Under the pieces are notes generated by a model that saw nothing but the letters and a program-made list of their open reading frames with translations, ran no database searches and had not been told where the DNA came from. DNA of 41,255 bases from Gemmatimonadota bacterium (GTDB taxonomy: Bacteria; Gemmatimonadota; Gemmatimonadetes; Gemmatimonadales; Gemmatimonadaceae), in assembly GCA_040389905.1 (NCBI GenBank), contig JAZJZK010000031.1, positions 1 to 41,255 on the forward strand. The letters run 5' to 3'. Of the stretch, positions 1,622-29,018 are shown in pieces (the first letter of the stretch is position 1; every line of letters begins with the position of its first letter). The position numbers and the translations under genes are program-made.

Positions 1622-3505
1622 GTCGAGTAGCGGAGGGGAATCGCACCCCTCCGCCCTCACAGAACCGGACGTGAGACTCTCGCCTCATCCGGCTCCTACT
1701 CTCCAGCCTCCGGTTTCACCCCGAGCTGCCACAACACAAACAAGGTGGGGTCCCCGTCGCGCGACGCGCCCTAACCAGTGCATCGACGCACGCTCTCGAC
1801 GGCGAAATCGGGTGTACTTCCGTCGCACCCATGCAGCAAGGGCCTCATTGAAAACGCGTAACACTTGAACACACTTCGACCGATAGAACCGGCCATAGTA
1901 GTTCATCCAGCCTTGTACGACTGGATTGGTGACCCGCGCCAGGTCCTCCAAACGCTGATTGTTCCTGGTGGCCGCCATCCGCCAATCGCGAATGGTCGCG
2001 CGGATCTTCTTGGCCGCCTTGGAGCTGATCGCTGGAAGGAAGCTCACAAAGAACTTCCCCCATCGATTCTTCGCCCGCCGAGGTTGGAAGGTGTACCCGA
2101 GAAAGTCGAACGTGATGTGCTCGTGCCTCCCGGGCCGGTCGTCATCTTTGCAGTACACGATGCGGGTCTTCGTAGGATGAAGCTCCATACCGCACTGCTC
2201 AAACCGACCACGAATGGCGTCCAACACTGCCTTGGCCTGCTCCTCACTGCCACAGTGCACCACCGCATCGTCCGCATACCGCTCGAACCGAACGCTCGGA
2301 TGGTTCCTCTGCATCCAGACATCGAACGCATAGTGCAGAAAGAGATTGGCCAGCAACGGACTGATGACGCCACCTTGCGGCGTGCCCTTCCTCCGTTCCA
2401 CCAACGACCCGTCCGCCCGTTGCACTGGTGCACGTAGCCACCGCGCAACGTAGAGCCGAATCCATGGCGAGTCAGTATGTCGTGCCACGGCGCGCTCAAC
2501 CAGATCATGCGGGATGGAATCAAAGAACCCCTTGATGTCCAAATCGATCACCCAGTCAGTCGTCCAGCAGCGCTTTCTCGCGACCCCGACCGCGTCGATC
2601 GCCGACTTGCCGGGACGATAGCCATACGAGTCGTCATGGAACACCGGTTCCACTCTCGGCTCGAACACCATCTTCACGACCGTCTGTGCTACCCGATCCG
2701 CGACGGTAGGAATCCCGAGTGGGCGCGTACCGCCGTTGTCCTTCGGTATCTCGACCAGCCGCACGGGCGGTGGGACGTATGCGCCCGACGACATCCGATT
2801 CCAGATCTTGTACAGATTGCCCTTCAGATCTTTCTCAAACGTCCCCAGAGACACACGATCCACGCCCGCTGCACCGCGGTTCGCCTTGACCCGTTGATAC
2901 GCTTTCCAAACGAGTTGCTTCGGAATGTCATACGGCTTTGCCTCAGACACCGGCTCCTCCCATTGCTGGTTGACCTGTCCCTTCGGCCAGAGAGTCGGGC
3001 TCCTTCGCTCCGCCCGCATTACCGGGCCTCCTCGCTACTACGAGCCCGTCCGCCCCTTCGCCTCGCATTGGTACTCTACTCCTCATGGGTCCACCACTTG
3101 GAGGTCTCCCTTCGCATCGAGGCGAGAGGTTCCCACGTTCCGCACAAGAGCCTGCGCTGAGCTCGCGCCACCTTCATGCCGGTCATCACTCGGGCAGTCG
3201 ACAGGCTTCCCCCCGAGCTCCTTCACAGGCCAACAACTGGAGCCTGCTTTCGATGACGTCCGTACGCTTTCGACACATTATCAGTGGTTCACTCGCGTTC
3301 GCCTTCTCAGCGCGCACCTGACGGGTTGATCCCGCCTTTTCCGTCTCGCTCACCACCCCAGCCATTGTGCCAGAGCAGCATCCGGTGGTTTGGACCCTGG
3401 TCCTGCAACCCGAGTCCGAGGGGCCAGCCCTCATCTCCTGTGCAGCAAGGCTGCATTGATTCGGCTTCTACATGCTTGCCTCCTCTTTGCGCCGTCGTGG
3501 CGCAC
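1622..3505 (-). mobile_element. Complete class-D-like group II intron (1884 nt) inserted one base after the YADD codons of a host RT gene
   Basis: 5' end GTGCGCCACG at 3505; domain V GAGCCGGATGAGGCGAGAGTCTCACGTCCGGTTC; 3' end ...CTACTCGAC at 1622; candidate EBS1/EBS2 pair with the 5' exon. Confidence 0.92.
1685..2950 (-). CDS. ltrA: Group II intron reverse transcriptase/maturase, class-D-like, no endonuclease domain; probable +1 frameshift near the C-terminus
   Basis: KPYDIPKQLVWKAYQRVKANRGAAGVD, LYKIWNRMSSG, RPLGIPTVADR, GTPQGGVISPLLAN, FERYADD. GTG start at 2950 follows GGAGGAG. Confidence 0.93.
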   Translation of the reverse strand: MSEAKPYDIPKQLVWKAYQRVKANRGAAGVDRVSLGTFEKDLKGNLYKIWNRMSSGAYVPPPVRLVEIPKDNGGTRPLGIPTVADRVAQTVVKMVFEPRVEPVFHDDSYGYRPGKSAIDAVGVARKRCWTTDWVIDLDIKGFFDSIPHDLVERAVARHTDSPWIRLYVARWLRAPVQRADGSLVERRKGTPQGGVISPLLANLFLHYAFDVWMQRNHPSVRFERYADDAVVHCGSEEQAKAVLDAIRGRFEQCGMELHPTKTRIVYCKDDDRPGRHEHITFDFLGYTFQPRRAKNRWGKFFVSFLPAISSKAAKKIRATIRDWRMAATRNNQRLEDLARVTNPVVQGWMNYYGRFYRSKCVQVLRVFNEALAAWVRRKYTRFRRRERASMHWLGRVARRGPHLVCVVAARGETGGWRVGAG

Positions 3506-4346
3506 AGTCGTCAGCATAGCGAACGAACCGGTGCCCCCGGCGCTCCAATTCCCGGTCGAGATCGTCGAGCAGGATGTTGCTGAGGAGCGGCGACAGGGGA
3601 CCGCCTTGCGGCGTGCCCTCTGTTCGGGGCGACATCACCCCGCCGTCCATGACGCCCGCTTGCAGGTACCGGCGTATCAGACGGAGCACTCGTTTGTCTG
3701 CAATCCTCCGGGCCACGCGCGCCATCAGGATATCATGGTTCACGCGGTCGAAGAATTTCTCGAGGTCCATGTCCACCACCCACCGATGACCCGCCGCCAC
3801 ATACTGCTGCGCGCGCCGCACGGCATCGTGGGCGCTCCGTCCCGGACGAAAGCCGTAGCTCGCCTCCGAGAAGGTCGGATCGATCAGCGGTTGAAGAACT
3901 TGGAGCAGGGCTTGTTGAATGAATCGGTCCAGTACCGTCGGGATGCCCAAGGACCGAAGACCGCCACCGGGTTTCGGAATCTCTACCCGACGCACGGGCT
4001 GCGGAATGTACTCGCCCTTAAGCAGCGTCTCCCGCACGCGCGGCCAGTGCACCGCGAGGTAGCCTTTGAGCTGGCCGACCGTCATGCCATCGGTGCCCGG
4101 TGCTCCCTTGTTCTGCACGACGCGCGTGTACGCCTTCACCAAGTTCTCGCGACGCAGCACCTCCTCCATGAGCGGTAACGTTCCTCCGTTCGTCACCTCG
4201 TCTTGTGCCGTGGACGTTTGACGCGCGCCTTCCCCCGCGACGTCGGCGATTCCGTCGCCGACGTCGCGGGTGTGCTCCGGCATCTCAGCCTTCTCGTCTG
4301 CGTCTCGCTCGTCCATCGAACGCCTCGCGTGCGAACGACTCTCCAT
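3506..4346 (-). pseudogene. ltrA: N-terminal half of group II intron RT (RT0-RT5 through YADD), class-C-like
   Basis: LMEEVLRRENL..AY.RV..NKGAPG.DGM, LGIPTVLDRFIQQA, VVDMDLEKFFDRVNHD, GTPQGGPLSPLLSNILLDDLDRELERRGHRFVRYADD; interrupted at 3505. Start codon uncertain. Confidence 0.9.
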
Positions 4347-6412: not shown

Positions 6413-6901
6413 TTGATCACGCGCGCGCTCGCGGCAGTCGCCCTGTCGTGCACGAGCACCGTTGCGAGCGCGCAGCTGTTCGCTCCGCACGTTTCTGTGA
6501 AAGTGCACTGCGGCACACATGGCCTGCATGGTCCGGTGGCAACGGTTCGGTGGGCGCCGTCCGGATCATTCCAGAACACGCATCTCGACTACTCGCTGTA
6601 CCGCGATGGCTTCCAGCGGGGCTTGTTTGCGTCCGTGTCGTTCACACCGAATGCGACGGCGATCGCAACGGCGATCAGCTATTCGTCGGCGAGCCCGAGT
6701 CGCGATTCGTCGCTCACTCAGTACCAGCTGAAGGTGCGGTCCGTCACGCAGCGGAATGATACGGTGACCGTCCAGCTGACGGGCATGGATCCGGGCGTGT
6801 TCTACTACTGGCGCGTGTCAAGCATCGACGTGCCGTTCGTGGTATTCCGCTGGGGCATCAGCTCGATGGCGCCGTCTTGCGGCGAAGTGCGGTCGCCATG
6901 A
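6413..6901 (+). CDS. Secreted hypothetical protein, possibly fibronectin type III-like
   Basis: Signal peptide ending ASA-Q; VQLTGMDPGVFYYWRV resembles FN3 strands. Start uncertain (TTG 6413); stop overlaps the next ATG. Confidence 0.65.
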   Translation: MITRALAAVALSCTSTVASAQLFAPHVSVKVHCGTHGLHGPVATVRWAPSGSFQNTHLDYSLYRDGFQRGLFASVSFTPNATAIATAISYSSASPSRDSSLTQYQLKVRSVTQRNDTVTVQLTGMDPGVFYYWRVSSIDVPFVVFRWGISSMAPSCGEVRSP

Positions 6902-9333
6902 CACGCCGATCTCGGGTGTTGGCAGCGGCACTGCTCGTCTGCCTCGTTGGATTTCCAGGCGCCGCGCAACAACCGGTGGTGAAGTCTCAGCCGGCCCGTG
7001 CGCCGGCGCTCGTCTGGCGCGACATCAACCCCGATTCATCGAGCACGCACGCGGTGCAGATCAATGGCGCCAGCGGCGGCCGCGTGAACGGACTCGCCGC
7101 CGCTTCTGACAAATCAGTCTTCTTCGCGGCATCTGAATGGGGAGGCCTGTACCGAAGTACCGACTCCGGTCGGACGTGGGCGCAGTTGTCCCGTCACTTG
7201 CCGATGGCCACCTGGCAAGTCGCCGTGGATCCGACAAACCCCAGACGCGTTTACGCGACGTCCTTTTTCGATGGCCGCACGAAGAGTCTGGCCGGCATCA
7301 ACGTAAGCACGGATGGCGGCGCCACGTGGGTGCATCCGAAGGTGAGTACGCCCGCACCGGGATTCTGCGACTCGCTCAGCCGCGAACAGAATCCGTCGGC
7401 GTTCGGCATCGCGATCGACAAGTCGAATCCGGCGCGTGTGCTCATCGGCACGAACTGCGGCCTGGCCGAGAGCAAAGACTCGGGCGTGACGTGGAATACG
7501 ATCTATCCTCTCGCGCACGGCGAAGCAGCGGATGTGTGGAGCGTCGTCATTCACGCCGGCATCGTGGACATCTGTGGTGAGGCCGGACACAGCCGATCGA
7601 CGGACGGTGGCAAATCATGGAGCGACGCGGCACGTCTGCCATTGCTCTCCGGGCGCTGCTCGATCACCGCATCACCGCGCGATTCAAACCGCCTCTTCGC
7701 GACGGTCGGTGGTTCGGTCTTCCAATCACGCGATGGGGGTGAGCAGTGGCTCCCCCTGGACAGTGCGTACCGACGGCCGGACAACGGCCCCGGGCGCATC
7801 GCATCGATCGCCGCGAACAATCGGTCGGACTCCACCTTCGATCTCTGGTACGGATACGAAAATCTGTATCGCGGCACCTGCACGCCGTCTCGCTGTCCAC
7901 TGCCGGACACCAGCGGCGTCGGTTGGCATCTTCTGGGGTGGACGAACGGCGCACATCAGGACATCGGTGTCGTGCTGTTCGATCCTGCCGCCCCGACGGA
8001 CGCCTGCCCGATCATGCTCTCGAACGATGGTGGCATCGAGTTGAACACGGTGACAACGAGTCCCGCGTGCCACACCGCGCCGCACTGGATTCAACCAAAC
8101 GTCACCCCGCACGGGCTCTGGTTGCTCAGCATGGATCTCGCAGAGATCATCACACGCGATTCGATCGTGCAGCTCCCGGGCGATAGTGTTGGCGTGAAGA
8201 AGACGAACGACCTGCATAACTATCATCGTGTCGTGTTCGGGACGCAGGATAACGGCGCATTCCAGACGGATCGCGCGAATTCGACAATGCTGTGGTTCAA
8301 TACGGATCCGGCGGATGCGGGAGACGCCCTTTCCGGCACCCGTCTCACACTCAACAGTGTGTGCTGTTATCCGGAGAAACGACTCTTCCTGCGCCATATT
8401 GGTGCGGGCGCCGTCCTGTCCGATACAGCGGCGAGTCGGGTCGTACCGCCGTCGAACAGCGCCGCGCTGAGCATCAACGGCGTCGTCGCCCATGTGCAGT
8501 ATTCGCAGTACGCAGCGCTGACCACTGCCGGCTTGCTCCTCTCGCAGTCGGTGGGGTTGGTGAAGAACAAGAGCGACAGTGTTTGGACGTCGCTCGGATG
8601 GCCGACGATAATTCCCAAGCCCGACACCGGCAGCAGTGCGGGCCTCATGGTCTCGCGTGGCAGCACTGGCCCAGTGTTCTACGTGCGGATTGATTCTGCC
8701 GGCGCGCCGTCGCAACTCTGGACGCTTACGGGCGTGCGATGGCCCGCGAGCGAGGTCGCTGTCAATCCGCAGACCAGATGGCGGCACGTCACGCCACCGA
8801 ACGGCATCGGAGGGTTCGGCGTGGTGACGGTCGACCGCACAAACCCGAACCGGCTCTTTGCCTCTCATGACGTCCCGGATAGCACTCCACGGATGATGCT
8901 ATCCAACGACGCAGGACTCACGTGGACATATCTTCCCTCGCTCGACGCGTGCATGACCGGACACGGAAAGTACTTCTACACGAATGCCCGGGGCCCCACC
9001 GGAATCGGCGCTGGGAAGAACGGCTTCTCCGGCTACTCGCAGCCGACGATGGTTGGGTATGGCGCGCCGACCGACAGTGGCCGGGTCATGTTCGCGGGAG
9101 CGGCAGACGCGGGCATCTTCATGAGCATCGATCGCGGAAAGCATTGGGCAGCCATCACCGATCCAGATCAGACGTCGCTGCTCGGCCTCCCGCATTTGCC
9201 TCGCCCGCTCTTCGTGCAGGCATTCGGAGGAGAAACCAACAGCACTGCCTACTTCGGTACGCAGGGTCGCGGGATATGGCGATTGTTCTATCGCAACCGA
9301 CAGCTCGGTGGAGCAGCGCTGCCTTCCTGTTGA
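6898..9333 (+). CDS. Secreted BNR/Asp-box repeat beta-propeller protein (VPS10/GH74/sialidase-like fold)
   Basis: Signal peptide; repeated S-x-D-x-G-x-x-W boxes (STDSGRTW, STDGGATW, SKDSGVTW, STDGGKSW, SRDGGEQW, SNDAGLTW, SIDRGKHW); N-terminal GGRVNGL and C-terminal GTQGRGIW. Confidence 0.85.
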   Translation: MTRRSRVLAAALLVCLVGFPGAAQQPVVKSQPARAPALVWRDINPDSSSTHAVQINGASGGRVNGLAAASDKSVFFAASEWGGLYRSTDSGRTWAQLSRHLPMATWQVAVDPTNPRRVYATSFFDGRTKSLAGINVSTDGGATWVHPKVSTPAPGFCDSLSREQNPSAFGIAIDKSNPARVLIGTNCGLAESKDSGVTWNTIYPLAHGEAADVWSVVIHAGIVDICGEAGHSRSTDGGKSWSDAARLPLLSGRCSITASPRDSNRLFATVGGSVFQSRDGGEQWLPLDSAYRRPDNGPGRIASIAANNRSDSTFDLWYGYENLYRGTCTPSRCPLPDTSGVGWHLLGWTNGAHQDIGVVLFDPAAPTDACPIMLSNDGGIELNTVTTSPACHTAPHWIQPNVTPHGLWLLSMDLAEIITRDSIVQLPGDSVGVKKTNDLHNYHRVVFGTQDNGAFQTDRANSTMLWFNTDPADAGDALSGTRLTLNSVCCYPEKRLFLRHIGAGAVLSDTAASRVVPPSNSAALSINGVVAHVQYSQYAALTTAGLLLSQSVGLVKNKSDSVWTSLGWPTIIPKPDTGSSAGLMVSRGSTGPVFYVRIDSAGAPSQLWTLTGVRWPASEVAVNPQTRWRHVTPPNGIGGFGVVTVDRTNPNRLFASHDVPDSTPRMMLSNDAGLTWTYLPSLDACMTGHGKYFYTNARGPTGIGAGKNGFSGYSQPTMVGYGAPTDSGRVMFAGAADAGIFMSIDRGKHWAAITDPDQTSLLGLPHLPRPLFVQAFGGETNSTAYFGTQGRGIWRLFYRNRQLGGAALPSC

Positions 9334-9444
9334 CGCCTTGCGGTCGAGCCGGTCACGTCGCACGTTCCCGCGTACAATAACGAACGCTGGTCGTGCCGCG
9401 GCTGGCGCGACGGCCCACCGCCGGCATCGCCGGCAGGAGCGCAC

Positions 9445-9735
9445 ATGGTACCGCCTCCCTCCGCTGCACCGCTGGAAATCGGCGATTTGCTCGCCGGTGA
9501 CATAGCCACCGAATTGTGGAACAGCACGGACAGGAGCAGGGGAATGCACAGCAGCCCTCGTGCGGAGGATGCGCCGGCGTCCACACCGCCTGGGTCGCCG
9601 GTGTCGCCTGTGCCATGTCCGGTGTCACCGTTCCCCTGCGGAAGCTCGGACGGATGCTCTCCCGAGCCATGTCCTGTCTCTCCTGTCCCCTGCCCTATAT
9701 CGCCCTTCCCATGCGGGAGCACGGACGGCTGCTGA
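9445..9735 (+). CDS. Putative lanthipeptide-type RiPP precursor (96 aa) with duplicated Ser/Pro/Cys core
   Basis: AGGAG RBS at 9435-9439; acidic Cys-free leader; core SPVPC-PV-SPFPC-G-SSDGC-SPEPC-PV-SPVPC-PI-SPFPC-G-STDGC; directly upstream of the kinase/lyase/LanC genes. Confidence 0.85.
   Translation: MVPPPSAAPLEIGDLLAGDIATELWNSTDRSRGMHSSPRAEDAPASTPPGSPVSPVPCPVSPFPCGSSDGCSPEPCPVSPVPCPISPFPCGSTDGC
9604..9732 (+). repeat. Two diverged 54-nt coding repeats (9604-9657 and 9679-9732)
   Basis: Of 18 codons, 6 are identical, 10 differ synonymously and 2 differ conservatively (V/I, S/T). Confidence 0.9.
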
Positions 9736-9788
9736 GCGTTCCCACCCCGTAGCTTGAGTCGCTGTTCCACTCGGATTGCGCGCATCAG

Positions 9789-10859
9789 GTGAACCCCGAA
9801 GAGGTGATTGCATACCTGCTCGAGGTTCAACTTCTCGATGCGCGCGATTTCGTGTGTGGCGCAATCCGAGCCCAGGATCGCAGCGCACGCCATCGCGGCG
9901 TGTCCGTCGAGACCACAACTCGGCCGGGGTATTTCGTCAAGCACTCGCCACCCGGCGACGTTATCGGGACGCTGGATTCGGAGGCGACATTCTACCGGTT
10001 GGCGAACGGCGAAGGGCGCCTCAGCGCGCTCAGGCCGTTTGTTCCCGCGTTTCATCGTTATGACGCGGCGCGAAGGACTCTCGTCATCGAGCTCGCGTCC
10101 AATGCCGAACCGGCGCGGGGTGGTGAGCGCCGCGCATTTTCCATCGCACGAATCTCGCAACCGCTGGCGCACGCTCTCGCGGCTTGTCATTCCGCTGGGA
10201 CTGAGGACGATCAAGCGACACGCGCGACGTTCAGCCGGATGTTACCGTGGGCATTTCACATCGCGTTCCCGTCGGCCGCCATCTTTCGCGATGTGGGCCC
10301 CCTCCAGCTGGATGTCATCAAGCTCATTCAGCGCCAGCCCGATGTGATCGAGCGCTTTCGCTGGCTGCGCCGCGAGTGGAAGTGGAGCACGTTCACACAT
10401 GGCGATGTTCGCTGGTCCAACGTGCTCGTTGACGACAATGACGCTATTCGCCTGATCGACTGGGAGACGGCAGGAATCGGCGATCCGGCCTGGGACATCG
10501 CGTGCGCATTCGAAGGATGGTTCTCACGCGCGCTCGAGACGCTCCCGTTGCGAGAGAACGACGGTCCACGAGAGGCATCCGACGCGTTCGCGCAGATTCT
10601 CCCATCGCTGCAGGAACAAACGCGGCAACTGTGGCTTGCGTACGCGAACGCACGAGCCTTGTCGCAGGAGGAGCGCCGTACACTGCTCGAATGCGCCACC
10701 GCACTGGTAGGTGCTCGGCTGATACAGTCGGCCTATGAGTGGGCGCGTGGTCGCCCGCAGTTGTCACCATTCATTCTTCTGTCTGTCCAACTCGGCGTGA
10801 ACCTCTTGCGACAGTCACCGGCGCAACGCGCTACCGTGCTCGGACTCTCGGCCGCGTGA
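9789..10859 (+). CDS. APH-family phosphotransferase, LanK-like kinase
   Basis: YFVK lysine, HGDVRWSNVL, IRLIDWE.AG.GDPAWD motifs; coupled to the HopA1-like gene. Confidence 0.88.
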   Translation: MNPEEVIAYLLEVQLLDARDFVCGAIRAQDRSARHRGVSVETTTRPGYFVKHSPPGDVIGTLDSEATFYRLANGEGRLSALRPFVPAFHRYDAARRTLVIELASNAEPARGGERRAFSIARISQPLAHALAACHSAGTEDDQATRATFSRMLPWAFHIAFPSAAIFRDVGPLQLDVIKLIQRQPDVIERFRWLRREWKWSTFTHGDVRWSNVLVDDNDAIRLIDWETAGIGDPAWDIACAFEGWFSRALETLPLRENDGPREASDAFAQILPSLQEQTRQLWLAYANARALSQEERRTLLECATALVGARLIQSAYEWARGRPQLSPFILLSVQLGVNLLRQSPAQRATVLGLSAA

Positions 10860-11782
10860 CCTCAGCATCTCCGCAGCCGACGCCCATCGAAGCTCTCGAG
10901 CCCATCGTCGAGCGAATGCGGCGTGCCGACTGGGTACATGCCGAGGACGCTGAGCACCGGCTGGCGCAGTTGATCTATCAGGTCTGTCACGGACGCCAGC
11001 AGATACCCGAACGGGCGACGCGTGCGTTGCCTGCCGATGCGTTAATGGACCGTGAGTTCGCCGCCGGGCTGTCGCGAGCCAACGGCGGTATTGGGCCGCG
11101 CCATGACAGTTGGACGGTACGCACGATCGAGGATGATGGGCGCCTTGCGGTGGAGCTCGATGGCTTGATGCTATGGATCGACGGACAGGCAGGAGCGTCG
11201 GTCGGGGATCGTGTCGCTGTGCGTCTTCCGAAGGAGTATCGCAACCTGTATCCCGGGCATTACGTGGCGATCGGCGATGCGGACCGCGGAACGCGAGCGA
11301 ATCCGGTGCGCATCTACTGGAACATCGGCTCGGAGGGAGCACCGGTTCTGTTGGAGGCGGTCACGCGGACGTTCAACGCACGAAACATTGCCTTTCGATT
11401 CAAGTTGTTGAGTTCACCGCGTGCCTACACGCGCGCCGACGCGGCGATCCTCTATCTGCCCGCATTTCACAGAGCGGAGGGCGCTGAGCTGGTTCGACAG
11501 GTGTATCGCGACGTGCGATCGATCATGCGCACGCCGAATTCAGCCTTCGTCCTGGCTCTCGCGCCCGGCTTAGGGCTGGCGGAAGATCCCATGGATGGTT
11601 CGAGCTTTGGCCTGCATCGAAGCCGCCTGATCGCGTCCATGCTCATTGCGGCCGTGCACCACGAAGAACCGCTTTCCGAAATTGCCAGCGGTCTCGAAGG
11701 CGCTGGCTACGACCTTCGGCATTTTTACCGGAACCCGGGATCGAGCGCACGCTACGACGACTTTGTCGTGGACGACGTCTGA
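10856..11782 (+). CDS. HopA1-family protein, LanY-like phospho-Ser/Thr lyase
   Basis: VRLPKEYRNLYPGHY, VRIYWNI, FRFKLL, RADAAILY, LAPGLGLAEDP..GSSFGLHR; GTGA start/stop overlap with the kinase gene. Confidence 0.88.
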   Translation: MTSASPQPTPIEALEPIVERMRRADWVHAEDAEHRLAQLIYQVCHGRQQIPERATRALPADALMDREFAAGLSRANGGIGPRHDSWTVRTIEDDGRLAVELDGLMLWIDGQAGASVGDRVAVRLPKEYRNLYPGHYVAIGDADRGTRANPVRIYWNIGSEGAPVLLEAVTRTFNARNIAFRFKLLSSPRAYTRADAAILYLPAFHRAEGAELVRQVYRDVRSIMRTPNSAFVLALAPGLGLAEDPMDGSSFGLHRSRLIASMLIAAVHHEEPLSEIASGLEGAGYDLRHFYRNPGSSARYDDFVVDDV

Positions 11783-11783
11783 C

Positions 11784-13046
11784 ATGTCGAGTCCCGCTGA
11801 ACGCTGGCTCCGTATCGCAGAGGAGATTGCGGAGTCGTTGTGCGCTTCCGCGTACCGGTTCCACGGTGAATGTACATGGATGGGATCGGTGCAGCGCGGC
11901 GGCGGCGCCATCGGCGGAAACTCGATCTTCACCTATGAGACCCTGCCGCCCGATCTGTACAACGGAGCCAGCGGGATCGGACTGTTTCTCGCCGAAATGT
12001 TCCGGCACACGAAGCATGGGCAGATGCGAACGATCGCGCTCGAGGCACTCCGCTTCAGCGCCGCGCGGCTCGATCAGATTCCTGCTCGCTTTCGCGCGGG
12101 CTTCTACACGGGACGAGTCGGAATCGCGTATGCACTCGTGCAGGGAGGTACGCTACTCGACGAGCCTGCCCTGATCGCGGATGCACACCGAATCCTGGAC
12201 GTCATAGCCGCCGACGAAGGCGATGGGATACTTCTCGATATCATCTCCGGCGCAGCCGGGGCAATCGCACCGCTGCTTGCGATGTCCTCATCCTTGGCGC
12301 GCGATGATCTCTTCGCGCTGTCGGAAGTTTTCGGACGGATGATCATCGTGGCGGCGCATCGCGGGGATACCGGCTGGTCCTGGGGCGACGACGCGACGGG
12401 GTTTCACGCTCAGCGTCCGCTCGCGGGATATGGTCACGGCGCCGCTGGGCTCGGACTCGGATTGATGGAGCTCTTCGCCGTTACGGGTGAAGAGGAATAT
12501 CGAGTCGGCGCCCTCAGTGCGTTCGGATACGAGAATGCCCTTTTCAGTTCCTCACGCGGCAATTGGCCCGACCTCCGCTATTCCGCCGACAGCAGTGACA
12601 ACGGGCACTTTGGCGTGGCGTGGTGCCTCGGCGCACAGGGCATTGGCATGAGCCGCTTGCGCGCGATGGCACTCGATCCGCTCACCGCGCAGCACGTCGC
12701 TGACGCGGAGGCGGCGATTGGCGCCGTTCAGCGACAGTTCCACAACACCATCCATCCCGGGAGCTCGGATTTTTCCCTCTGTCATGGCTTCGCAGGCGAT
12801 GGTGATTTTGCACTTCAGGCGGCTGACGCGCTTGAGCGTGAGGATGTGCGGCGCCTTGCACACGCGATCGCGGAGAGTGGCGCCGTGGCGAATGGCGGCA
12901 GCCCTACGCGCTGGCACTGCGGACTCCAGCGCGGAAGCAATCCGTCGCTCATGCTCGGCCTTGCAGGGATTGGGCACTTCTACCTTCGCCTTGCTGATCC
13001 GTCGGTGCCATCTGTGCTGCTCGTGACGCCTGAGCTCAATCGCTAA
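11784..13046 (+). CDS. lanC: Stand-alone LanC-like lanthionine cyclase
   Basis: DLYNGASG, GFYTGRVG, DIISGAAG, GYGHGAAG, NWPDLR, WCLG and LCHG (zinc-ligand Cys, Cys and His retained), SLMLGLAGIG; ATG at 11784. Confidence 0.92.
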   Translation: MSSPAERWLRIAEEIAESLCASAYRFHGECTWMGSVQRGGGAIGGNSIFTYETLPPDLYNGASGIGLFLAEMFRHTKHGQMRTIALEALRFSAARLDQIPARFRAGFYTGRVGIAYALVQGGTLLDEPALIADAHRILDVIAADEGDGILLDIISGAAGAIAPLLAMSSSLARDDLFALSEVFGRMIIVAAHRGDTGWSWGDDATGFHAQRPLAGYGHGAAGLGLGLMELFAVTGEEEYRVGALSAFGYENALFSSSRGNWPDLRYSADSSDNGHFGVAWCLGAQGIGMSRLRAMALDPLTAQHVADAEAAIGAVQRQFHNTIHPGSSDFSLCHGFAGDGDFALQAADALEREDVRRLAHAIAESGAVANGGSPTRWHCGLQRGSNPSLMLGLAGIGHFYLRLADPSVPSVLLVTPELNR

Positions 13047-13099
13047 CGTCTGCGGGGGTCATCCCGAGCTCGCTCGGGGTGACAGACGTTAGCGTTGAG
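13035..13099. terminator. Long palindrome between convergent genes (REP-derived, probable bidirectional terminator)
   Basis: CGCTAACGTCTG...CAGACGTTAGCG encloses GTCATCCCGAGC/GCTCGGGGTGAC; both TAA stops lie symmetrically in the stem. Confidence 0.6.
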
Positions 13100-16043
13100 G
13101 CGGGGCACCAAGCCGCTGCAAGCCTGCGAGCGCCTCGCGAACCGCGGGCTGAAGCTGCTCGTCAGCACTCTTCCAGACGGCCGCAACATAAGTGTACGCG
13201 CTGATCGCATCGTCACGACGCCCAAGGCGCTCTGCGACACGACCACGCTCGAGCCGCCACCGTACACCGATGGGATTGTAGATATTCGGAATGTCATCGA
13301 GGATTTTCCACGCCTCCCCAAGGCGACCGCGCTGCGAAAGCAGAATCGCTGCCTGCAGCGGCTCGTAGGGGCAGAATGGAATGATGCAATCCGTTGGGCC
13401 GAGAGCGAGTAGCGCAGTGAGAGCGTTGGCGGTGTCACCGCGCGCAAGCGTGAGGTACGCACGCGATGCGGCGCCGAGATGACGCGAGTAGCGCGCCGCG
13501 TTGTTTCCGGGCGCGCTTTTCGCCGCGTCGGCTTCGGCGCGCTCGGCGACTGCGCGAAGTGCTGCCGTGTCGTGATGCTCACTCCACCACGGCAGCGCGA
13601 AGATCGATCCCGTTGGTCCCGCTCCCGCTTTGCGGCTCAGACTATCGAAGAAGACTGCACCCTCTCGGCGGGGCAGTGCGTTCATCATGACGAGACTCGC
13701 CTTCAGGAGCTGTGTCACCCATCCCGCTTCGAACTGAGGACTCAGCGCGTACGCTTCTCGGAGGTGACCACGAAACGCGAGAGGATACGCTAGCTGGAAT
13801 GCTGTGAACTTCGGCTCGGCGTATCGTGGAATGCTCGTCCGTCGGCCAGGGCCCAGCAGCCGCGCCAGCCGCACCGCTGATTCGCCAGAGTCCGGCCAGT
13901 AGCTTACGACGTCGATAGCGTGGACGAGAATCTCACCCGACGCAGTGTCCAACACCGACTGTATTTTGGCAGCTGGCGTCCGCTCGTCGAGAAGCTGTGA
14001 CGCAAGACGCAACCCATCCCCGTGAACGTCGGTGGGGTTCAGGGCGAGATACGCACGGAGATAGCGGCGAGCAGCATCCGTACTGCCGGTCGCCATCGCG
14101 AGATACACGGCATCGAGGTACGGTGGCGCGAATCCGGAATCGATGGCGATTGCGCGGTCGAGCGCTTTCAGGGCACCGCGCACTTTCATCGACAGAATTG
14201 CTCGCGCGTTGCCCAGCGAATACCATAGCTCGCGATCGTCAGGATACTGCGTCGTGGCGGCGTCGAGTGTTTGGAACAGGTCGCGCACATGTTGCGGGTA
14301 GTCACGGTCGGCGAACCCGCTGTTCACGACCGATTTGAGCCCCTCGGCGTGAACGAGCAAGCTCTCACGCGGAGCCAGACCGTGGTTCAGCGCCGCCGCG
14401 CGTTGCGCATACTGACGCGCAAGCGCGTCATCCGGATATCGCTGCCAACCCGCGACCATGCTCATGCGGAGATACGCCAGCGCCATCGTCGAATCGAGAT
14501 CCACAGCGCGCTGGTAATACACCATCGCCGAGTCCCACGCAGTACGCCTGAAGTAGTGCTCGCCCTGGAGAAACGCCTTGAGCGCCGGCAGCGGCGTCGA
14601 TCGCGCCGCCACCATCCGCGCCTCGGCCATCCGTTGCGATTGCCCCAAAAGCCGCAGGACCTCGAGAGTGAGCCGCTCCGCGAGCCGCCCGATCTGCACG
14701 GTCTCCTCGGTGAGATGCACCTCGCCCAGCGGCTGCGATCCAGCCACGTCGTACACGGTGGCCGTGAGACTCACCGAGTCGGCGCCGGAGCGAAGCAGTG
14801 TACCCGATACCGCCGATGCGGCACCCGTACTCCGTCCCAGATCGCGGATGGCGCGCGGATCATTCGCACCCTTCCAGCTTTGATTGATGACGGTCATCGA
14901 GACCGAACGCAGTGGCCCCGCACCGTCGAGGTTCCGAGCAACGACTTCGGCTAGCCCTTCGCGCCACACCTCGAGCTGCGGCTCGGGGGCAGCGAACGGC
15001 GCAACGGCCACGAGATTCTTGTCGAGCGAGTCACCTGCCGCGGCCCCGCCGATGCGCCCCCACGCCTGCCATGCCGCCACGGCGAGTGCTGTCGCGACGA
15101 CTGCGCCGGCGAACACCAATCGGCGGCGCGATGTGCTTCCGGCATCCGCCTCAGGCTGATGCACGGCGCTGGTCCGATCACGCACCGCTGCGGCCTCGGC
15201 AACAAATTCTTTCACCGAGGGAAAGCGCTCGCCAGGCGACTTCGCAAGCGCTCGAATGATTGCCGCCGCAACGCGCTCGGGGACCTCCGGCCGGAATGTC
15301 TTGGCATTCGGCGGTGGCGCAGTGACGTGCTGAGCGAGCAATGCCTGAAAGGTGGGACCCTCGTACGGATGCCGCCCCGTGAGCATCTCGAAGAGCACGC
15401 ATGCCAATCCATATTGGTCCGAACTGGCGTCGACTTCACCCGCACCGAGCGCCTGTTCTGGGCTCATGTAGTACGGCGTGCCGAGTCCGGCGTGCTCTGA
15501 GGTGAGCTCGAGTGCACCGGGCGTCGGTTCGAGCGCGCGGGCAAGGCCGAAGTCGGCCACAACTGCGAGTCCGCCGGACAACAGCACATTCGCCGGCTTG
15601 ATATCGCGATGTACGACGCCGCGGTCATGCGCATGCTGCAGGGCGGCGGCGATCTCACGCGCGAGCCGGTATGCGTCGCTGAGGGGTAGCCGGCCTTCCC
15701 GCTCGAGGCGGTGTGCGAGCGTCTCACCTTCGACGAACGGCATCACATAGTACAGCAGCCCCTGCTCGGAGCCAGACGTGAACACCGGTAGAATGTTCGG
15801 GTGCGTGAGCCCGGCCGCGATGAGGATCTCGCGAAGGAAACGATCCGAGTTGACCGTGCTTGCGAGCTCCTGCCGGAGCACCTTTACGGCGACAGACCGC
15901 TCATGTTTGACGTCACGCGCAAGAAAGACGGTTGCTTGCGCGCCAGCGCCGATCTCGTCGCCGAGGATATACCCGTCGCCGAGGGCGGCGGAGACGCGGG
16001 ACGCAAGCGAAGGAAGGGAGGCGTCACCCAAGGGGGAATGCAC
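13089..16043 (-). CDS. Hanks-type Ser/Thr protein kinase with TM segment and TPR-like C-terminal region
   Basis: GAGAQATV, VAVK, HRDIKPAN, DFG, GTPYYMSPEQ; hydrophobic segment followed by helical repeats. Confidence 0.93.
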   Translation of the reverse strand: MHSPLGDASLPSLASRVSAALGDGYILGDEIGAGAQATVFLARDVKHERSVAVKVLRQELASTVNSDRFLREILIAAGLTHPNILPVFTSGSEQGLLYYVMPFVEGETLAHRLEREGRLPLSDAYRLAREIAAALQHAHDRGVVHRDIKPANVLLSGGLAVVADFGLARALEPTPGALELTSEHAGLGTPYYMSPEQALGAGEVDASSDQYGLACVLFEMLTGRHPYEGPTFQALLAQHVTAPPPNAKTFRPEVPERVAAAIIRALAKSPGERFPSVKEFVAEAAAVRDRTSAVHQPEADAGSTSRRRLVFAGAVVATALAVAAWQAWGRIGGAAAGDSLDKNLVAVAPFAAPEPQLEVWREGLAEVVARNLDGAGPLRSVSMTVINQSWKGANDPRAIRDLGRSTGAASAVSGTLLRSGADSVSLTATVYDVAGSQPLGEVHLTEETVQIGRLAERLTLEVLRLLGQSQRMAEARMVAARSTPLPALKAFLQGEHYFRRTAWDSAMVYYQRAVDLDSTMALAYLRMSMVAGWQRYPDDALARQYAQRAAALNHGLAPRESLLVHAEGLKSVVNSGFADRDYPQHVRDLFQTLDAATTQYPDDRELWYSLGNARAILSMKVRGALKALDRAIAIDSGFAPPYLDAVYLAMATGSTDAARRYLRAYLALNPTDVHGDGLRLASQLLDERTPAAKIQSVLDTASGEILVHAIDVVSYWPDSGESAVRLARLLGPGRRTSIPRYAEPKFTAFQLAYPLAFRGHLREAYALSPQFEAGWVTQLLKASLVMMNALPRREGAVFFDSLSRKAGAGPTGSIFALPWWSEHHDTAALRAVAERAEADAAKSAPGNNAARYSRHLGAASRAYLTLARGDTANALTALLALGPTDCIIPFCPYEPLQAAILLSQRGRLGEAWKILDDIPNIYNPIGVRWRLERGRVAERLGRRDDAISAYTYVAAVWKSADEQLQPAVREALAGLQRLGAPPQR

Positions 16044-16103: not shown

Positions 16104-18023
16104 TCACACGGGCGTGAGACTCGTCTCGCGCAGCGGCGATCTGCGCCGCAGGCGCGCGTTCACCTCACGCTGGCCCTCGGCGAGACGCCGCATGTCGTGT
16201 CCCGCCGCTGATGCAGCATCGAGGAGCGTCGTGAGCGAGGACAGGTCCGTCGAACCCGCGTGCAACCGCAGCAGGTCGAGACGTATGCTCTCGAGCGATG
16301 ATACCGTCGAGCTTAGTGCGCGGCGCGCTTCGGAGCGTGCCTCACCCAACGCGTCACGCGTGGCCTCGGCACCACCAACAGCCTCTTGCACAGCAAGCTC
16401 ATCGAGCCTCGCGCGCGCTGTCGCAGCGCGCGCCTCGAGCTTCTCCACGATTGAGGGTAGTTCGGGAAGCCGTTCCCGGAAGCTCGCTGGCAGGGCGTCA
16501 AACAGCTCGCCCGCGGCAACGCCGAGCACGACCTCCGTTGGCCGGAACGCTGCCTCGCTGACCATCGTCGACTTCTCCGGAGCCCCAAGTCGCTTCGCGA
16601 TCCATTCGCCGAGCTTCGACGTCCAAAGCCGATCGCGCATGCTTCGCCTTCCGCGTCGCAATGAGGCCGGCAGCAGGGGCACATTGTTGATGTCGCACGC
16701 GCCGATCAGGACGAACGTGCCGATCAGCGACGCGATTTGCACGGTCGGCCAGAACCGGACGCCTCCCATCATCATCGAGCCGAGTGCAGGAATCATCGAC
16801 ACATACGTGGCCAAACGCAGGAAGTGCCGCGGCAACGTAAGGGGCTTGTCCGCGTCGACCGCGAGAGCGTCGGCGCGATCATCTTCGTCGCGCGCGATCG
16901 CGGTGCGAAGATCGGCAAGTGAAAAGCCGGCGTTGAACAACCGGCGTCCACGCAGGATATGAACGCCCACCGTCATCAATGCCGGGGGTAGGCTCACCGC
17001 GAGAGGAAATGCCCACAAGTTTCCGAGCTTTCCCAGCGAGGCACCGAGGAGCATGGCCAAGACAAGACGCAGAATCGAAACGCCAGCCATCAAGCCCAGT
17101 CCAATGAACAGTCGATACGCGGGATTCCGCGCGCGCAACCACGCTCGCAATGCGTCCGGCAGCGGTGGCTCGACGTCGCGCCGGCGCTCCAGGGCGGTGG
17201 CGAGTGCGCGCCCATTCGTGAATCGGTCGTCACGGTTCACTGACAGGCACCGATCGATCGCGGATCCGAGTTCCGCAGGCACTCCCGGCGCTACCGCCGC
17301 TAAGCGGCTGGGTGTCTCGGTCGCCTGCCGCACCATCAGCGCAGGAAGATTCGGCGCGTCGAACGGCAGGCGTCCGCTCACGGCGACGTAGCCGACCACG
17401 CCGAGCGCATAGAGGTCGCTGCGACCGTCGATTTCCTGATTCGCCGCCTGTTCCGGGCTCATGAAATGGGCGGTGCCCATGACGCGTCCCGGGTCACTCG
17501 GCGTCGTCTCCATCACGGCGCTCGAGCGTGCGATTCCGAAATCCGTCACCAGCGCGCGACCGGTGCCCGCTTCGAGCAAGATGTTATCGGGCTTGATATC
17601 CCGGTGAATGATCCCGCGCTCATGCGCGTAGTCGAGCGCCCACGCCACTTCGCGCATGATGCGCATCGATTCCGCTGGCGCGAGCGGTCCATCGGCACGA
17701 AGCTGCTCGCCGAGCGTCCGGCCTGGCACGTAGGCCATGACGAAGAACACAAATCCGCCAGCTACTCCGACCCGATGAATCGGAACGATGTTCGGATGCG
17801 ACAGCCCGGCGGCCGTTCGCGCCTCGCGGATGAAGCGCTCGCGAAGACTCGGCTGCTCCGCAAAGTGTGATGGCAGCACCTTGATCGCGACATCCCGGTC
17901 GAGCTGCACATCCCGGGCGAGGTATACAACCCCCATGCCGCCGCGGCCCAGCTCGCGCTGAAGGGAGTATTCACCGGCGAGCGCGATCTGGAGGGCGATG
18001 AAGTCGGGCGGGATGAGGCTCAT
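16104..18023 (-). CDS. Hanks-type Ser/Thr protein kinase with multi-TM C-terminal region
   Basis: GRGGMGVV, VAIK, HRDIKPDN, DFG, MSPEQ; start reassigned to ATG 18023 by comparison with the upstream paralog. Confidence 0.93.
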   Translation of the reverse strand: MSLIPPDFIALQIALAGEYSLQRELGRGGMGVVYLARDVQLDRDVAIKVLPSHFAEQPSLRERFIREARTAAGLSHPNIVPIHRVGVAGGFVFFVMAYVPGRTLGEQLRADGPLAPAESMRIMREVAWALDYAHERGIIHRDIKPDNILLEAGTGRALVTDFGIARSSAVMETTPSDPGRVMGTAHFMSPEQAANQEIDGRSDLYALGVVGYVAVSGRLPFDAPNLPALMVRQATETPSRLAAVAPGVPAELGSAIDRCLSVNRDDRFTNGRALATALERRRDVEPPLPDALRAWLRARNPAYRLFIGLGLMAGVSILRLVLAMLLGASLGKLGNLWAFPLAVSLPPALMTVGVHILRGRRLFNAGFSLADLRTAIARDEDDRADALAVDADKPLTLPRHFLRLATYVSMIPALGSMMMGGVRFWPTVQIASLIGTFVLIGACDINNVPLLPASLRRGRRSMRDRLWTSKLGEWIAKRLGAPEKSTMVSEAAFRPTEVVLGVAAGELFDALPASFRERLPELPSIVEKLEARAATARARLDELAVQEAVGGAEATRDALGEARSEARRALSSTVSSLESIRLDLLRLHAGSTDLSSLTTLLDAASAAGHDMRRLAEGQREVNARLRRRSPLRETSLTPV

Positions 18024-18090
18024 GGGACTCCCAACGGGAGAGGACTCGGAATATGGGTTTTGACGCCTCCCGGCCCTACGGCGATTCGTG

Positions 18091-18188
18091 TCCGGTCGTT
18101 TCCAGCGCATCCGGTCAATCCGTTCCTCAAGCTGTTGATGCTATTAAGGAGCGGATTGATCGGATGCCACGGAAACAACCTGATCAAG
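18091..18188. repeat. Palindromic repeat, family B (arms back to back)
   Basis: TTAAGGAGCGGATTGATCGGATGCCACGGAAACAACCTGATCAAG plus an inverted copy; similar to 33267 and 38152. Confidence 0.75.
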
Positions 18189-18196
18189 CACCTGCC

Positions 18197-18580
18197 CCAC
18201 GCCACTTCACGCAACATCCGCGCAGCCTCGGCGGCACCCAGCGGGCCCTGTTCACGGAGCCGCTCCCCGAGGGTTTTCCCAGCGACGTAGCTCATCACAA
18301 AAAAGACGAACCCCGCCGCCTCCCCAACCCGGTGAATCGGTACGATGTTCGGATGTGAAAGGCCGGCGGCAGTGCGCGCCTCGCGCAGGAATCGCTCGCG
18401 CGATTCCGGTTGTTCGGCGAGGTGCGCTGGGAGAACCTTGATGGCAACATGGCGGTCGAGTTGCACGTCTCGCGCGAGGTACACGACACCCATACCACCC
18501 CTGCCGAGCTCGCGCTCGAGGGAATACTCACCAGCGAGCGCGACCTGCAAATCGAGAAATTCGTGAGAAGGTGAGGCCAT
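18197..18580 (-). pseudogene. Truncated Ser/Thr kinase (N-lobe only), paralog of the adjacent kinase
   Basis: Closely similar to the 18023 kinase up to REVAW, then runs into repeat sequence; no HRD or DFG motif. Confidence 0.85.
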
Positions 18581-24928: not shown

Positions 24929-25354
24929 TTACTTTCCTGCGCCCGGCGTGTCCTTGGGTGGCACACCGATGACCTTGACGCCTGACCCGCGCGACACGTC
25001 CATTGCGTGCACCACCTGCCCGTAGCTCGCCTTCATTTCGCCCTTCACGAAAATGATCTTTTCCGGGCGACCGTCGTAGATCTCCTTGAGCCGCGACGCG
25101 AGCCGCGTTTCGTCGACCTTCTCGGTGTTGATGGAGTACGTGCCGTCCTGAAGCACTTCGAGCACGATTTGATTCGACTGCGCGCCAGGCGGTGCGAGCG
25201 CGGGTGTCGGATCGGGGAGCTGCACGTCGACCGTCTTTCTCATGGTCGGGATCGCCGCCATGAAGATGATGAGGAGCACGAGCAGCACGTCGATCATGGG
25301 CGTGACGTTGATGTCGTTCGTCAGCCCGCCGGAGCCACCTGATGTAAATGCCAT
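24929..25354 (-). CDS. exbD: Biopolymer transporter ExbD/TolR
   Basis: DINVTPMIDVLLVLLIIFM. Confidence 0.95.
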   Translation of the reverse strand: MAFTSGGSGGLTNDINVTPMIDVLLVLLIIFMAAIPTMRKTVDVQLPDPTPALAPPGAQSNQIVLEVLQDGTYSINTEKVDETRLASRLKEIYDGRPEKIIFVKGEMKASYGQVVHAMDVSRGSGVKVIGVPPKDTPGAGK

Positions 25355-25839
25355 TAGGGTGTCCCCGGAGTTGCGGGTGGAGAAGCCTTACTGTCACCGG
25401 CGACCGTCGAGACCGTGCCATTCTTCTGGTCGCTGATGAGGCCAAGGACTCGCACGCCGTTCTTCGCCGCCATATCGGTGGCGTCGACGACCTTTGAATA
25501 TTCGAGGTCCTTGTCGGCCTTGAGATACATCACCTTGTCGGCAACGCGCTTGTCGTAGATCTCCTTGATGCGCGCCTCGATTTCCGTCTTCTTGATCGGC
25601 TGCTTGTTCAGGTAGTAGTCACCGGCCTTGTCGATACCGAGCACTTGATCGGTCTCGGCATCTTCCGGATGATCCTTCAGGTTCTGCCCCTGGGGCGGAA
25701 CCGCCTGAAAACCAGCGAGCAGTGCGGGTGTCACCACCATGAAGATGATGAGCAGCACGAGCATGACGTCGATCATGGGTGTCACGTTCGGCTCTGCCTT
25801 TACCCCCCCAGCACCACCGCCACCTGCAGACATGGCCAT
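25354..25839 (-). CDS. exbD: Biopolymer transporter ExbD/TolR
   Basis: EPNVTPMIDVMLVLLIIFMV; LKADKDLEY. Confidence 0.95.
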   Translation of the reverse strand: MAMSAGGGGAGGVKAEPNVTPMIDVMLVLLIIFMVVTPALLAGFQAVPPQGQNLKDHPEDAETDQVLGIDKAGDYYLNKQPIKKTEIEARIKEIYDKRVADKVMYLKADKDLEYSKVVDATDMAAKNGVRVLGLISDQKNGTVSTVAGDSKASPPATPGTP

Positions 25840-25871
25840 TGTTCACTCCCTCCTCAATGGAATGTCGCTGA

Positions 25872-26606
25872 TCAGGTGATCGGGGCGTTGCTGCCAGACG
25901 AAGCGTTGAACTCACGCGTGAAGCGCGACCGGCCGAACTCACCCGAGACACCCTTGATGAGGTAGTCGATCATTTCCTTCGAGACGTACGTCATCTCAAC
26001 CGTGAGGTTGTCGATCTTCGTCTGGAAGTAGTTGTACGCCCACACCGCCGGAATGGCGACGAGGAGGCCGAGTGCCGTCGTGGCCAGAGCCTCGGAGATA
26101 CCACCGCCGATTGCCGCCAGACCGCCCGAGCCGGAGCTCGCCATGCCGGCGAAGGCGTTGATGATACCGACCGTGGTGCCGAGCAGTCCGACGAACGGCG
26201 CCGTGGCGCCCACCGTGGCCAGCACCGCGAGGCCGCGCTTCAGGTTCGTGATCTCGAGGAGCATGTTGCGCTCGACCGCGCGCTCTGCCGAGTTGATATC
26301 CGACACCGTGACCGAGCCATCCTGGATGAGCGGCTTCACTTCGCTGAGCGCGCCACCGAGCACGAGTGCGACATGTGACTTCTTGTAGCTCTCGGCCAGC
26401 TTGATCGCTTCGGTGAGGTTGTCTTCCTCGAGGAACTGCGAGAACTCAGGCGCGAACTTGATCGTTTCCTTCTGTGCTTTCCGAAGACTCCACCACTTGG
26501 CGACCATGACCGTGAGCGAGTACACAGACATGATGATCATGACGAGAACGATGCCTTTGGCAAAGTTCCCCATTGCACCCCACATTTCCTGCAGTGAGAG
26601 ATCCAT
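25872..26606 (-). CDS. exbB: MotA/TolQ/ExbB proton channel
   Basis: LATVGATAPFVGLLGTTVGI, GISEALATTALGLLVAIPA. Confidence 0.95.
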   Translation of the reverse strand: MDLSLQEMWGAMGNFAKGIVLVMIIMSVYSLTVMVAKWWSLRKAQKETIKFAPEFSQFLEEDNLTEAIKLAESYKKSHVALVLGGALSEVKPLIQDGSVTVSDINSAERAVERNMLLEITNLKRGLAVLATVGATAPFVGLLGTTVGIINAFAGMASSGSGGLAAIGGGISEALATTALGLLVAIPAVWAYNYFQTKIDNLTVEMTYVSKEMIDYLIKGVSGEFGRSRFTREFNASSGSNAPIT

Positions 26607-26624
26607 TCTGTTTCTCCGACGAAG

Positions 26625-27344: not shown

Positions 27345-27458
27345 GTCCTTGCTACCTTCCCAGGTCTGATGGACAGGACACTCCAGTGACTCCAAACAAA
27401 CTACGCCGCACGAGGAGGAGCGAAAGTAATGAACGATTAAGATTTCGTGAAAACGCAG

Positions 27459-29009: not shown

Positions 29010-29018
29010 AGAACGCTC

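Follow-up and report, generated by a model that had tools for sequence, protein, structure and literature searches.

What does a short, cysteine-rich open reading frame (ORF) in the genome of a Gemmatimonadota bacterium encode, and what would become of its seven Cys residues? The ORF lies at positions 9445 to 9735 on the forward strand of contig JAZJZK010000031.1 (assembly GCA_040389905.1, family Gemmatimonadaceae); the whole stretch of 41,255 nt that was analysed is referred to below as the window. Its translation, 96 aa followed by a stop, is MVPPPSAAPLEIGDLLAGDIATELWNSTDRSRGMHSSPRAEDAPASTPPGSPVSPVPCPVSPFPCGSSDGCSPEPCPVSPVPCPISPFPCGSTDGC. The ORF stands at the head of an operon that also encodes a stand-alone kinase (LanK), a stand-alone lyase (LanY) and a lanthionine cyclase (LanC). 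We propose that it specifies a class Vb-type lanthipeptide precursor, and that its product probably carries seven small, non-overlapping lanthionine rings, each joining a Ser at position i to the Cys at position i+4. An earlier note on this DNA had suggested a ring-forming precursor peptide and a search for its pattern near LanC genes; the ORF is indeed built like a lanthipeptide precursor and LanC does adjoin it, and the kinase and lyase genes, which the note had not mentioned, complete the set.

Features expected of a LanA gene are present: an ORF of 96 aa placed 53 nt upstream of LanK, a leader free of Cys, and a core in which Ser/Thr and Cys residues are paired. The leader extends over residues 1 to about 46 and is followed by a degenerate heptad (residues 47-53) and by the core (residues 54-96, positions 9604 to 9732 on the forward strand), which reads SPVPC-PV-SPFPC-G-SSDGC-SPEPC-PV-SPVPC-PI-SPFPC-G-STDGC. 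The seven Cys are found at positions 58, 65, 71, 76, 83, 90 and 96 and each of them has a Ser at i-4. Residues 1-50 contain no Cys and are net acidic. The ATG at 9445 is the first start codon past an in-frame stop at 9331, and a ribosome-binding site (AGGAG) is located at 9435-9439. Directly in front of this site a predicted hairpin of the form GCCGGC-NNN-GCCGGC can be drawn (hairpin and AGGAG together at 9420..9439, forward strand). In the window and in three related metagenomic loci described below (L023, L024 and L025) its loop is variable and the stem and AGGAG are invariant; the hairpin was predicted in 4 of 4 folds, with z-scores of -0.5 to -1.9 that are not significant. A promoter scan of positions 9200-9900 gave no sigma-70-like site, and a terminator scan of the same segment gave only two weak terminator-like sites, both within the end of the preceding gene, which encodes a BNR protein. 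One search for sequencing runs returned DNA data only and no RNA data.

The core and the heptad before it consist of a 25-residue duplication, residues 47-71 and 72-96 being identical at 18 of 25 positions. In the last 18 codons of the two copies, 6 codons are identical, 10 differ synonymously and 2 carry conservative non-synonymous changes (V/I and S/T). The 13 nucleotide differences between these 18-codon repeats are distributed as 2, 0 and 11 over the three codon positions, and a bias of at least 11 of 13 towards the third position has a probability of 1.9e-5. Estimated by the Nei-Gojobori method, pS is 0.76 (saturated) and pN is 0.062, a pN/pS ratio of 0.08. The excess of synonymous over conservative changes and the third-position bias indicate that the duplication is old and has been kept at the protein level in the precursor frame and not in the ORFs that overlap it. 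Copy 1 opens with a degenerate heptad (TPPGSPV) from which the Cys has been lost, so that the two copies contribute three plus four, that is seven, Cys residues. Tandem Repeats Finder detected no array with a period of 7 or 21 nt in the core; the peptide repeat is therefore not a fresh DNA repeat. Within each gene of the window, L023, L024 and L025, synonymous variation is also seen between heptads in the codons for S, P, P and C, a count that is partly circular since the units were chosen by their motif. On these points the earlier note stands: it had placed a Ser at i-4 of all seven Cys, had described the leader as acidic, Cys-free and preceded by a good ribosome-binding site, and had counted 10 synonymous and 2 conservative changes in 18 codons, numbers that our recount reproduced exactly. 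Its view that the frame looks translated and conserved agrees with the codon-position bias and with the relatives described below.

The same evidence bears on the simplest alternative, that the ORF is not a gene and arose by chance from a Pro/Cys-coding microsatellite in GC-rich DNA. Such microsatellites do exist. Arrays of (GGGGACA)n or its complement (TGTCCCC)n occur in the genome to which the window belongs, in relatives and in other phyla, encode LSPVPCP in three frames, and generate many false matches. LSPVPCP look-alikes were found at four sites in the genome that contains the window and all consist of (GGGGACA)n or its complement. Two of these, at G000:C35:6447-6614 (locus L002, 1515-1665) and G000:C7:256716-256883 (locus L003), are intergenic (GGGGACA)n arrays; at L002, about 11 GGGGACA units, a 38-nt spacer and about 4 complement units form an inverted pair that lies shortly before the start of a gene. 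The encoded LSPVPCP is nearly the same as the commonest heptad of the precursors, S-P-V-P-C-P-L/V, but the microsatellites differ from the precursor genes in being pure DNA repeats with three open frames, often arranged as intergenic inverted pairs. Precursor searches in the same genus, the same order and the phylum returned matches to the core alone, many of them interrupted by stops or lying within large ORFs; as judged from the result tables and the two own-genome examples, microsatellites explain most of them. Two loci assigned to a Chitinophagales metagenome-assembled genome (L017 and L019) were likewise rejected as relatives, being DNA tandem repeats devoid of lan genes. These false matches lack both the leader and neighbouring lan genes. 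The ORF of the window, in contrast, has a conserved Cys-free leader, a start codon and a ribosome-binding site, has a core that is not a tandem repeat at the DNA level and whose copies differ at third positions of one frame only, and belongs to a family that keeps its place before LanK at enzyme identities of 33-60%. That the ORF is a chance product of repetitive DNA is thus extremely improbable. A link between the two may be older: three TCCCCTG units in frame read S-P-V-P-C-P-L, so that an array of this kind could have been the distant origin of the heptad. We offer this as an idea and not as a finding; in codon counts, the synonymous sites of the true precursor genes show no trace of a 7-nt unit.

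Which enzymes would act on the peptide? LanK (9789..10859, forward strand, 356 aa) is a stand-alone Ser/Thr kinase of the APH fold (PF01636, 1e-17, 65 bits for a cut-off of 23.2) and its HGD..N..DWE signature is invariant in 6 relatives. LanY (10856..11782, forward strand, 308 aa) is a stand-alone phospho-Ser/Thr lyase of the HopA1 fold (PF17914, 1.5e-35), and its GTG start overlaps the LanK stop by 4 nt (GTGA). It matches PDB entry 9dk1_B ('Lyase') at 7.8e-10; residues R152, K183, R193 and Y200 are invariant and the R/K/R(+10)/Y(+17) spacing is that of 9dk1_B. The spacing of K183, R193 and Y200 is also that of K219, R229 and Y236 in CaoY, residues that are described as having been mutated and shown to matter (PMC9486802). 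LanC (11784..13046, forward strand, 420 aa), whose ATG comes 2 nt after the LanY stop (a gap of 1 nt), is a zinc-type lanthionine cyclase (PF05147, 7e-49). The motifs GHGAAG, NWPD, WCxGAxGI and LCHG are all present and supply the zinc ligands, a Cys and a Cys-His pair (C281, C333 and H334); WCLGAQGIG and LCHG align with the cyclase domain of LicM2, and a profile comparison against the PDB matched LicM2, LanCL1/2, NisC and CuvL. The precursor gene and the three enzyme genes are all on one strand, with catalytic motifs intact.

This gene content points to one class of lanthipeptide pathway. Among the other ORFs of the window (32 ORFs scanned with Pfam) there was no candidate for LanB, LanD, LanX, LanT or LanP, no flavoprotein and no second APH-type gene. 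The architecture of classes III and IV (LanKC, LanL) is not that of the operon, which divides the functions over three genes and uses a kinase of the APH type; LanC scored 126.5 against NF038150 (cut-off 650) and 49.9 against NF038151 (cut-off 575). Nor does it encode a class II enzyme (LanM), as the match to TIGR03897 is confined to the cyclase part (positions 539-932) and reaches 246 bits for a cut-off of 304. In two articles, class V is characterised by a stand-alone LanK (PF01636) together with LanY (PF17914), and subgroup Vb by a LanC and by products that contain (methyl)lanthionine only (PMC12291118, PMC11186320). Judged at the level of sequence, the operon displays every feature that marks class Vb.

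Relatives of the precursor show which of its features are kept. A first protein search gave two homologues, and a profile search gave 32 matches. Among the 18 that were inspected, 11 have the leader (P0001-P0008 and P0010-P0012) and 7 are leaderless LSPVPCP repeats; the 14 matches left uninspected (P0016, P0018-P0023 and P0026-P0032) are low-scoring. A metagenome scan identified L023-L025, in which the BNR protein gene, the precursor gene and LanK follow each other in this order; L025 also includes LanY and the start of LanC. The enzymes of these loci are 51-60% identical to those of the window. A further precursor was found in one (G531) of 400 other genomes of the same family, together with LanK (34% identity), LanY (37%) and LanC (42%); G531 retains the heptad core despite enzymes that are merely 33-42% identical to those of the window. 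In L023-L025 and G531 the precursor gene is always directly upstream of LanK. Several searches added nothing to this set: a leader-only word search recovered the query alone, a search of the ESM Atlas with the precursor gave no usable match, a scan of genome contigs gave 8 loci without a true relative (L015, L016, L018 and L020-L022 had no LanK, LanY or LanC match), and two further metagenome contigs (L026 and L027) had no lan genes. Pooled, the family comprises 15 distinct precursors, that of the window and 14 relatives.

All 15 share a leader of the form MVPP.. -> ..LLxGxIxTELW.. -> ..G(M)H, in which L15, L16, G18, W25 and H35 are invariant (14 aligned sequences). Their cores are built of S-P-x-P-C-P-x heptads in 2-9 copies, the largest having 9 canonical units and 11 Cys. 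A comparison of repeat number among relatives had been proposed in the earlier note, and its outcome is that the S-P-x-P-C unit is kept while its copy number varies. A Ser or Thr occurs at i-4 of 89 of the 93 Cys in the 15 members; the four exceptions all belong to P0012 and have a Ser at i-5. The pairing holds where the motif departs from the consensus: P0011 has a TPDPC unit in which Thr replaces one Ser and the dehydratable residue is retained, and the irregular SLVGC of P0002 still has its Ser at i-4. The number of core Ser equals the number of Cys in 7 of the 14 members counted. The module that combines S-P-x-P-C with S-x-D-G-C is common to the window and P0010 only, and P0010 has three such units. 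The earlier note had also considered that two cores might be released by cleavage after DGC. We reject this reading because most relatives lack the DGC element: 12 of the 15 members are without it and have uninterrupted heptads, with no mark of a cleavage site.

The conserved leader is predicted to be recognised by LanK; modelling supports this binding but does not prove it. A model of the leader-LanK complex scored 0.72 (0.72, 0.72 and 0.73 in separate runs), and controls scored 0.00, 0.00 and 0.02; the alignments used were shallow (6, 6 and 14 rows). The mark applied to this score was attained for 116 of 157 solved complexes and for 2 of 215 mismatched pairs. The runs shared at least 50% of contacts, and the pLDDT of the partner was 55-59. 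In the modelled interface, leader residues 12-35 (..GDLLAGDIATELW..GMH, positions 9478..9549 on the forward strand) lie on LanK residues 179-192, 249-271 and 324-350; the interface includes the invariant L15, L16, G18, W25 and H35, and conservation and the complex model both predict that this leader segment docks on the kinase. A comparable arrangement, with the leader on the C-terminal helices of the kinase, appears in a published model of CaoA and CaoK (PMC9486802).

Combined, these elements suggest the following pathway. The leader helix (..LLxGxIxTELW..) would dock on the C-terminal helices of LanK, which would phosphorylate every Ser that precedes a Pro. LanY would then eliminate the phosphate to give dehydroalanine (Dha), and at the zinc site of LanC the thiol of each Cys would be added to the Dha at i-4. 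The predicted product would contain five Ala(S)-Pro-x-Pro-Ala(S) rings, spaced by Pro-x along a proline-rich backbone, plus two Ala(S)-x-Asp-Gly-Ala(S) rings derived from the S-x-D-G-C elements and peculiar to the member encoded in the window. Removal of the leader and export would depend on proteins encoded outside the window. Both structural peculiarities of such rings are found, separately, in a characterised lanthipeptide: in nisin (class I), ring A spans i to i+4, and in ring B the dehydrated residue is immediately followed by Pro. Nisin is not known to contain a two-proline ring or a tandem series of one ring type, and its dehydratase is a tRNA-dependent LanB.

Several considerations weigh against this interpretation. 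To our knowledge no characterised ring has Pro at i+1 as well as at i+3. All of the chemistry proposed here, from dehydration to ring closure and its topology, is a prediction. The best NCBIfam match of LanK is LxmK (NF038156) with 82.1 bits for a cut-off of 315, which makes it a distant homologue and not an equivalog. The scan of the window ORFs revealed neither a protease gene nor a transporter gene. The family is rare, the precursor having been found in none of the 36 same-genus and 24 same-order genomes searched and in 1 of 400 others of the same family. As solved kinase-lyase complexes exist (PDB 9dk1-9dk3), part of the docking score may derive from those structures. Finally, in mSmoA, the one characterised class Vb product, overlapping rings are enforced by LanC (PMC11186320, PMC12328550), so that local rings cannot be assumed.

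This last point leads to the main competing view, in which the peptide is a genuine substrate of LanK, LanY and LanC and forms other rings: either Cys(i) would react with the Dha at i+3 (C-P-x-Dha), or LanC would impose overlapping or long-range rings. A Ser or Thr is present at i+3 of 61 of 85 Cys, and the class Vb LanC is reported to direct rings that are both overlapping and energetically unfavoured (PMC11186320, PMC12328550). An i+3 rule is broken, though, at the last Cys of every peptide and in the CGSSDGC, SLVGC and SDDGC elements, while the i-4 rule fits 89 of 93 Cys and leaves a Ser at i-5 for the remaining four; moreover, every core begins with a Ser and most end shortly past a Cys. 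We consider another ring topology unlikely, and the pattern of i to i+4 rings put forward in the earlier note is the best-supported reading of these sequences.

How does the locus compare with known pathways? Class Vb is represented by SmoA, whose enzymes are a LanK, a LanY and a LanC dedicated to the pathway (Pei et al., J Am Chem Soc 2022, PMC9621591, as cited in PMC11186320, PMC12328550 and PMC12291118), and mSmoA is called the parent and, to date, the sole member of the class (PMC11186320). Compared by description, the two pathways have in common a stand-alone PF01636 kinase, a PF17914 lyase and a LanC, the lack of LanD and LanX, and a short precursor in which an N-terminal leader precedes a core of Cys and Ser. 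They differ in that SmoA is a lone peptide from Streptomyces whose rings are two that overlap and one at the C-terminus, whereas tandem Pro-rich heptads in a likely Gemmatimonadota host are found here, and in that a BNR propeller protein and a receptor kinase travel with the present cluster. Class Va pathways (CaoK/CaoY of cacaoidin, LxmK/LxmY of lexapeptide), as covered in PMC9486802, resemble the present one in dehydration by a kinase and a lyase, and LanY keeps the Arg/Lys/Arg/Tyr set of CaoY; in contrast to them, the window has a zinc LanC and no LanD, LanX, AviMeCys chemistry or reductase.

Closer comparisons come from the same phylum. The H+-pyrophosphatase encoded in the window is 90% identical to its counterpart in a same-genus genome and 81% identical to that of a Gemmatimonadaceae metagenome-assembled genome, so that, by this one protein, the host is likely a member of Gemmatimonadota. 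When 400 other genomes of the phylum were sampled, 6 had HopA1-family genes, and four of the six (L046-L049) have LanK, LanY and LanC in the same gene order and with 30-43% identity to those of the window. The precursors of L046, L047 and L049 have a related leader motif (e.g. FFSGDVMTQHW), whereas their cores are a Lys-rich linker with a short GPGC..C tail and not heptads; no precursor candidate was identified in L048. Four members of the heptad family (P0006-P0008 and P0011) combine an AAKK linker with 2-4 heptads and look intermediate between the two core types. The LanC match of L047 is in two pieces (8291-9178 and 9159-9554, together 8291-9554) that overlap by 20 nt, which suggests a frameshift or an assembly error. 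In the LanC of L048 (6729-7946, reverse strand), PCRG replaces the LCHG found elsewhere, with the zinc-ligand His changed to Arg, and the adjoining kinase is not a full-length orthologue of the receptor kinase described below. Two loci from the same class, L050 (G231:C8) and L051 (G266:C84), contain LanK- and LanY-like genes (27-29% identity) and no LanC match in the 14-16 kb around them.

The operon of the window is flanked by two genes that appear to be inherited with it. Upstream, at 6877..9333 on the forward strand, a gene encodes a secreted, BNR/Sortilin-VPS10-like tandem beta-propeller of 818 aa (PF15902, 4.4e-14, and BNR) with an N-terminal signal-like hydrophobic stretch; its structural neighbours in the Atlas are all VPS10/BNR proteins. 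Homologues are located directly upstream of the precursor gene in L023, L024 and L025 (55-59% identity) and in G531 (42%), and a distant one is present in L046 (23%). Downstream, at 13089..16043 on the reverse strand and convergent on LanC, a gene encodes a receptor-type Ser/Thr kinase of 984 aa, with a Hanks kinase domain and a TolB_N/TPR ectodomain of about 650 aa (Pfam); a single hydrophobic window at about residues 309-327 is a predicted membrane helix. Full-length orthologues of it adjoin LanC in L046, L047 and L049 (41-47% identity) and in G531 (43%), and L048 has a shorter match. In 5 near-complete genomes of the same genus that lack the cluster, no orthologue of the BNR protein was found; the kinase ectodomain had paralogues of 36-40% identity in 2 of them, a match of 28% in 1 and none in 2. 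As the identity of housekeeping proteins within the genus is about 90%, genes that recur beside lan genes and are missing or weakly matched in cluster-free genomes would have travelled with the lan genes as one island. Distribution and sequence identity thus indicate that both flanking genes are inherited together with the lan cluster.

This association is relevant to a further alternative, according to which the peptide is made and its Cys stay free or bind metal, or it undergoes dehydration only, while the enzymes act on another substrate such as the BNR protein or the receptor kinase. Both of these proteins are co-inherited with the enzymes, and it is conceivable that repeats rich in Cys and Pro bind soft metals. 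Arguing for the peptide as the substrate are the conservation of its leader, the related leader motif in other LanK-LanY-LanC clusters, the leader's predicted fit on LanK, where controls scored close to zero, and the invariable position of the precursor gene directly upstream of LanK. Furthermore, each Cys is strictly paired with a residue that can be dehydrated, also where Thr has once replaced Ser, as a lanthionine substrate requires. We regard this alternative as very unlikely and retain the view that LanK, LanY and LanC modify the precursor.

The co-inherited genes also raise the question of function. In one scenario, the poly-ring peptide would be an extracellular signal, the receptor kinase its receptor and the BNR propeller a third partner, the six genes forming a mobile lanthipeptide-Hanks-kinase module in Gemmatimonadota; as it stands this is a speculation to which we give a rather low probability. 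Additional genes are found around the island. Directly behind the receptor kinase are a second Hanks-type Ser/Thr kinase (16104-18110, reverse strand, 668 aa) and a kinase-domain fragment (18020-18580, reverse strand, 186 aa), which resemble the receptor kinase in the kinase domain only (39% identity). On the other side, a group II intron-type reverse transcriptase/maturase (RVT_1 and GIIM) is encoded at 1685-3019 on the reverse strand and flanked by reverse-transcriptase pieces at 1050-1688 and 3468-4346; the segment 1050-4346 is therefore taken as mobile-element debris that lies upstream of the island at a distance of about 2.5 kb. Farther off, 12-19 kb downstream, the reverse strand encodes an ExbB/ExbD/TonB set and two two-component systems, one of which includes a sigma-54 activator (25354-27395 and 27459-32469). 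These are ordinary genes that showed no link to the cluster.

In conclusion, the ORF at 9445-9735 represents a real gene and a real new precursor family linked to a known enzyme class; what is new is the design of the core, the host phylum and the company of genes. A search of the full-text literature (subscription papers and most supplements being outside it) gave no heptad-type, proline-rich lanthipeptide precursor of this kind and no lanthipeptide of this kind from a Gemmatimonad. The locus and its relatives extend the class Vb enzyme set to a little-studied Gram-negative phylum, with a core in which a single ring motif of five residues, Ser-Pro-x-Pro-Cys, recurs in tandem 2 to 9 times. Should ring formation follow the prediction, the peptide would become a rod stiffened by its prolines and stapled at intervals of seven residues, a new peptide scaffold, and the family would provide a test case for kinase-lyase action at Ser-Pro sites, for the repetition of one ring along a chain by LanC, and for the evolution of repeat number. 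That a receptor kinase and a secreted propeller are inherited with the cluster hints at a role other than the usual antibiotic one.

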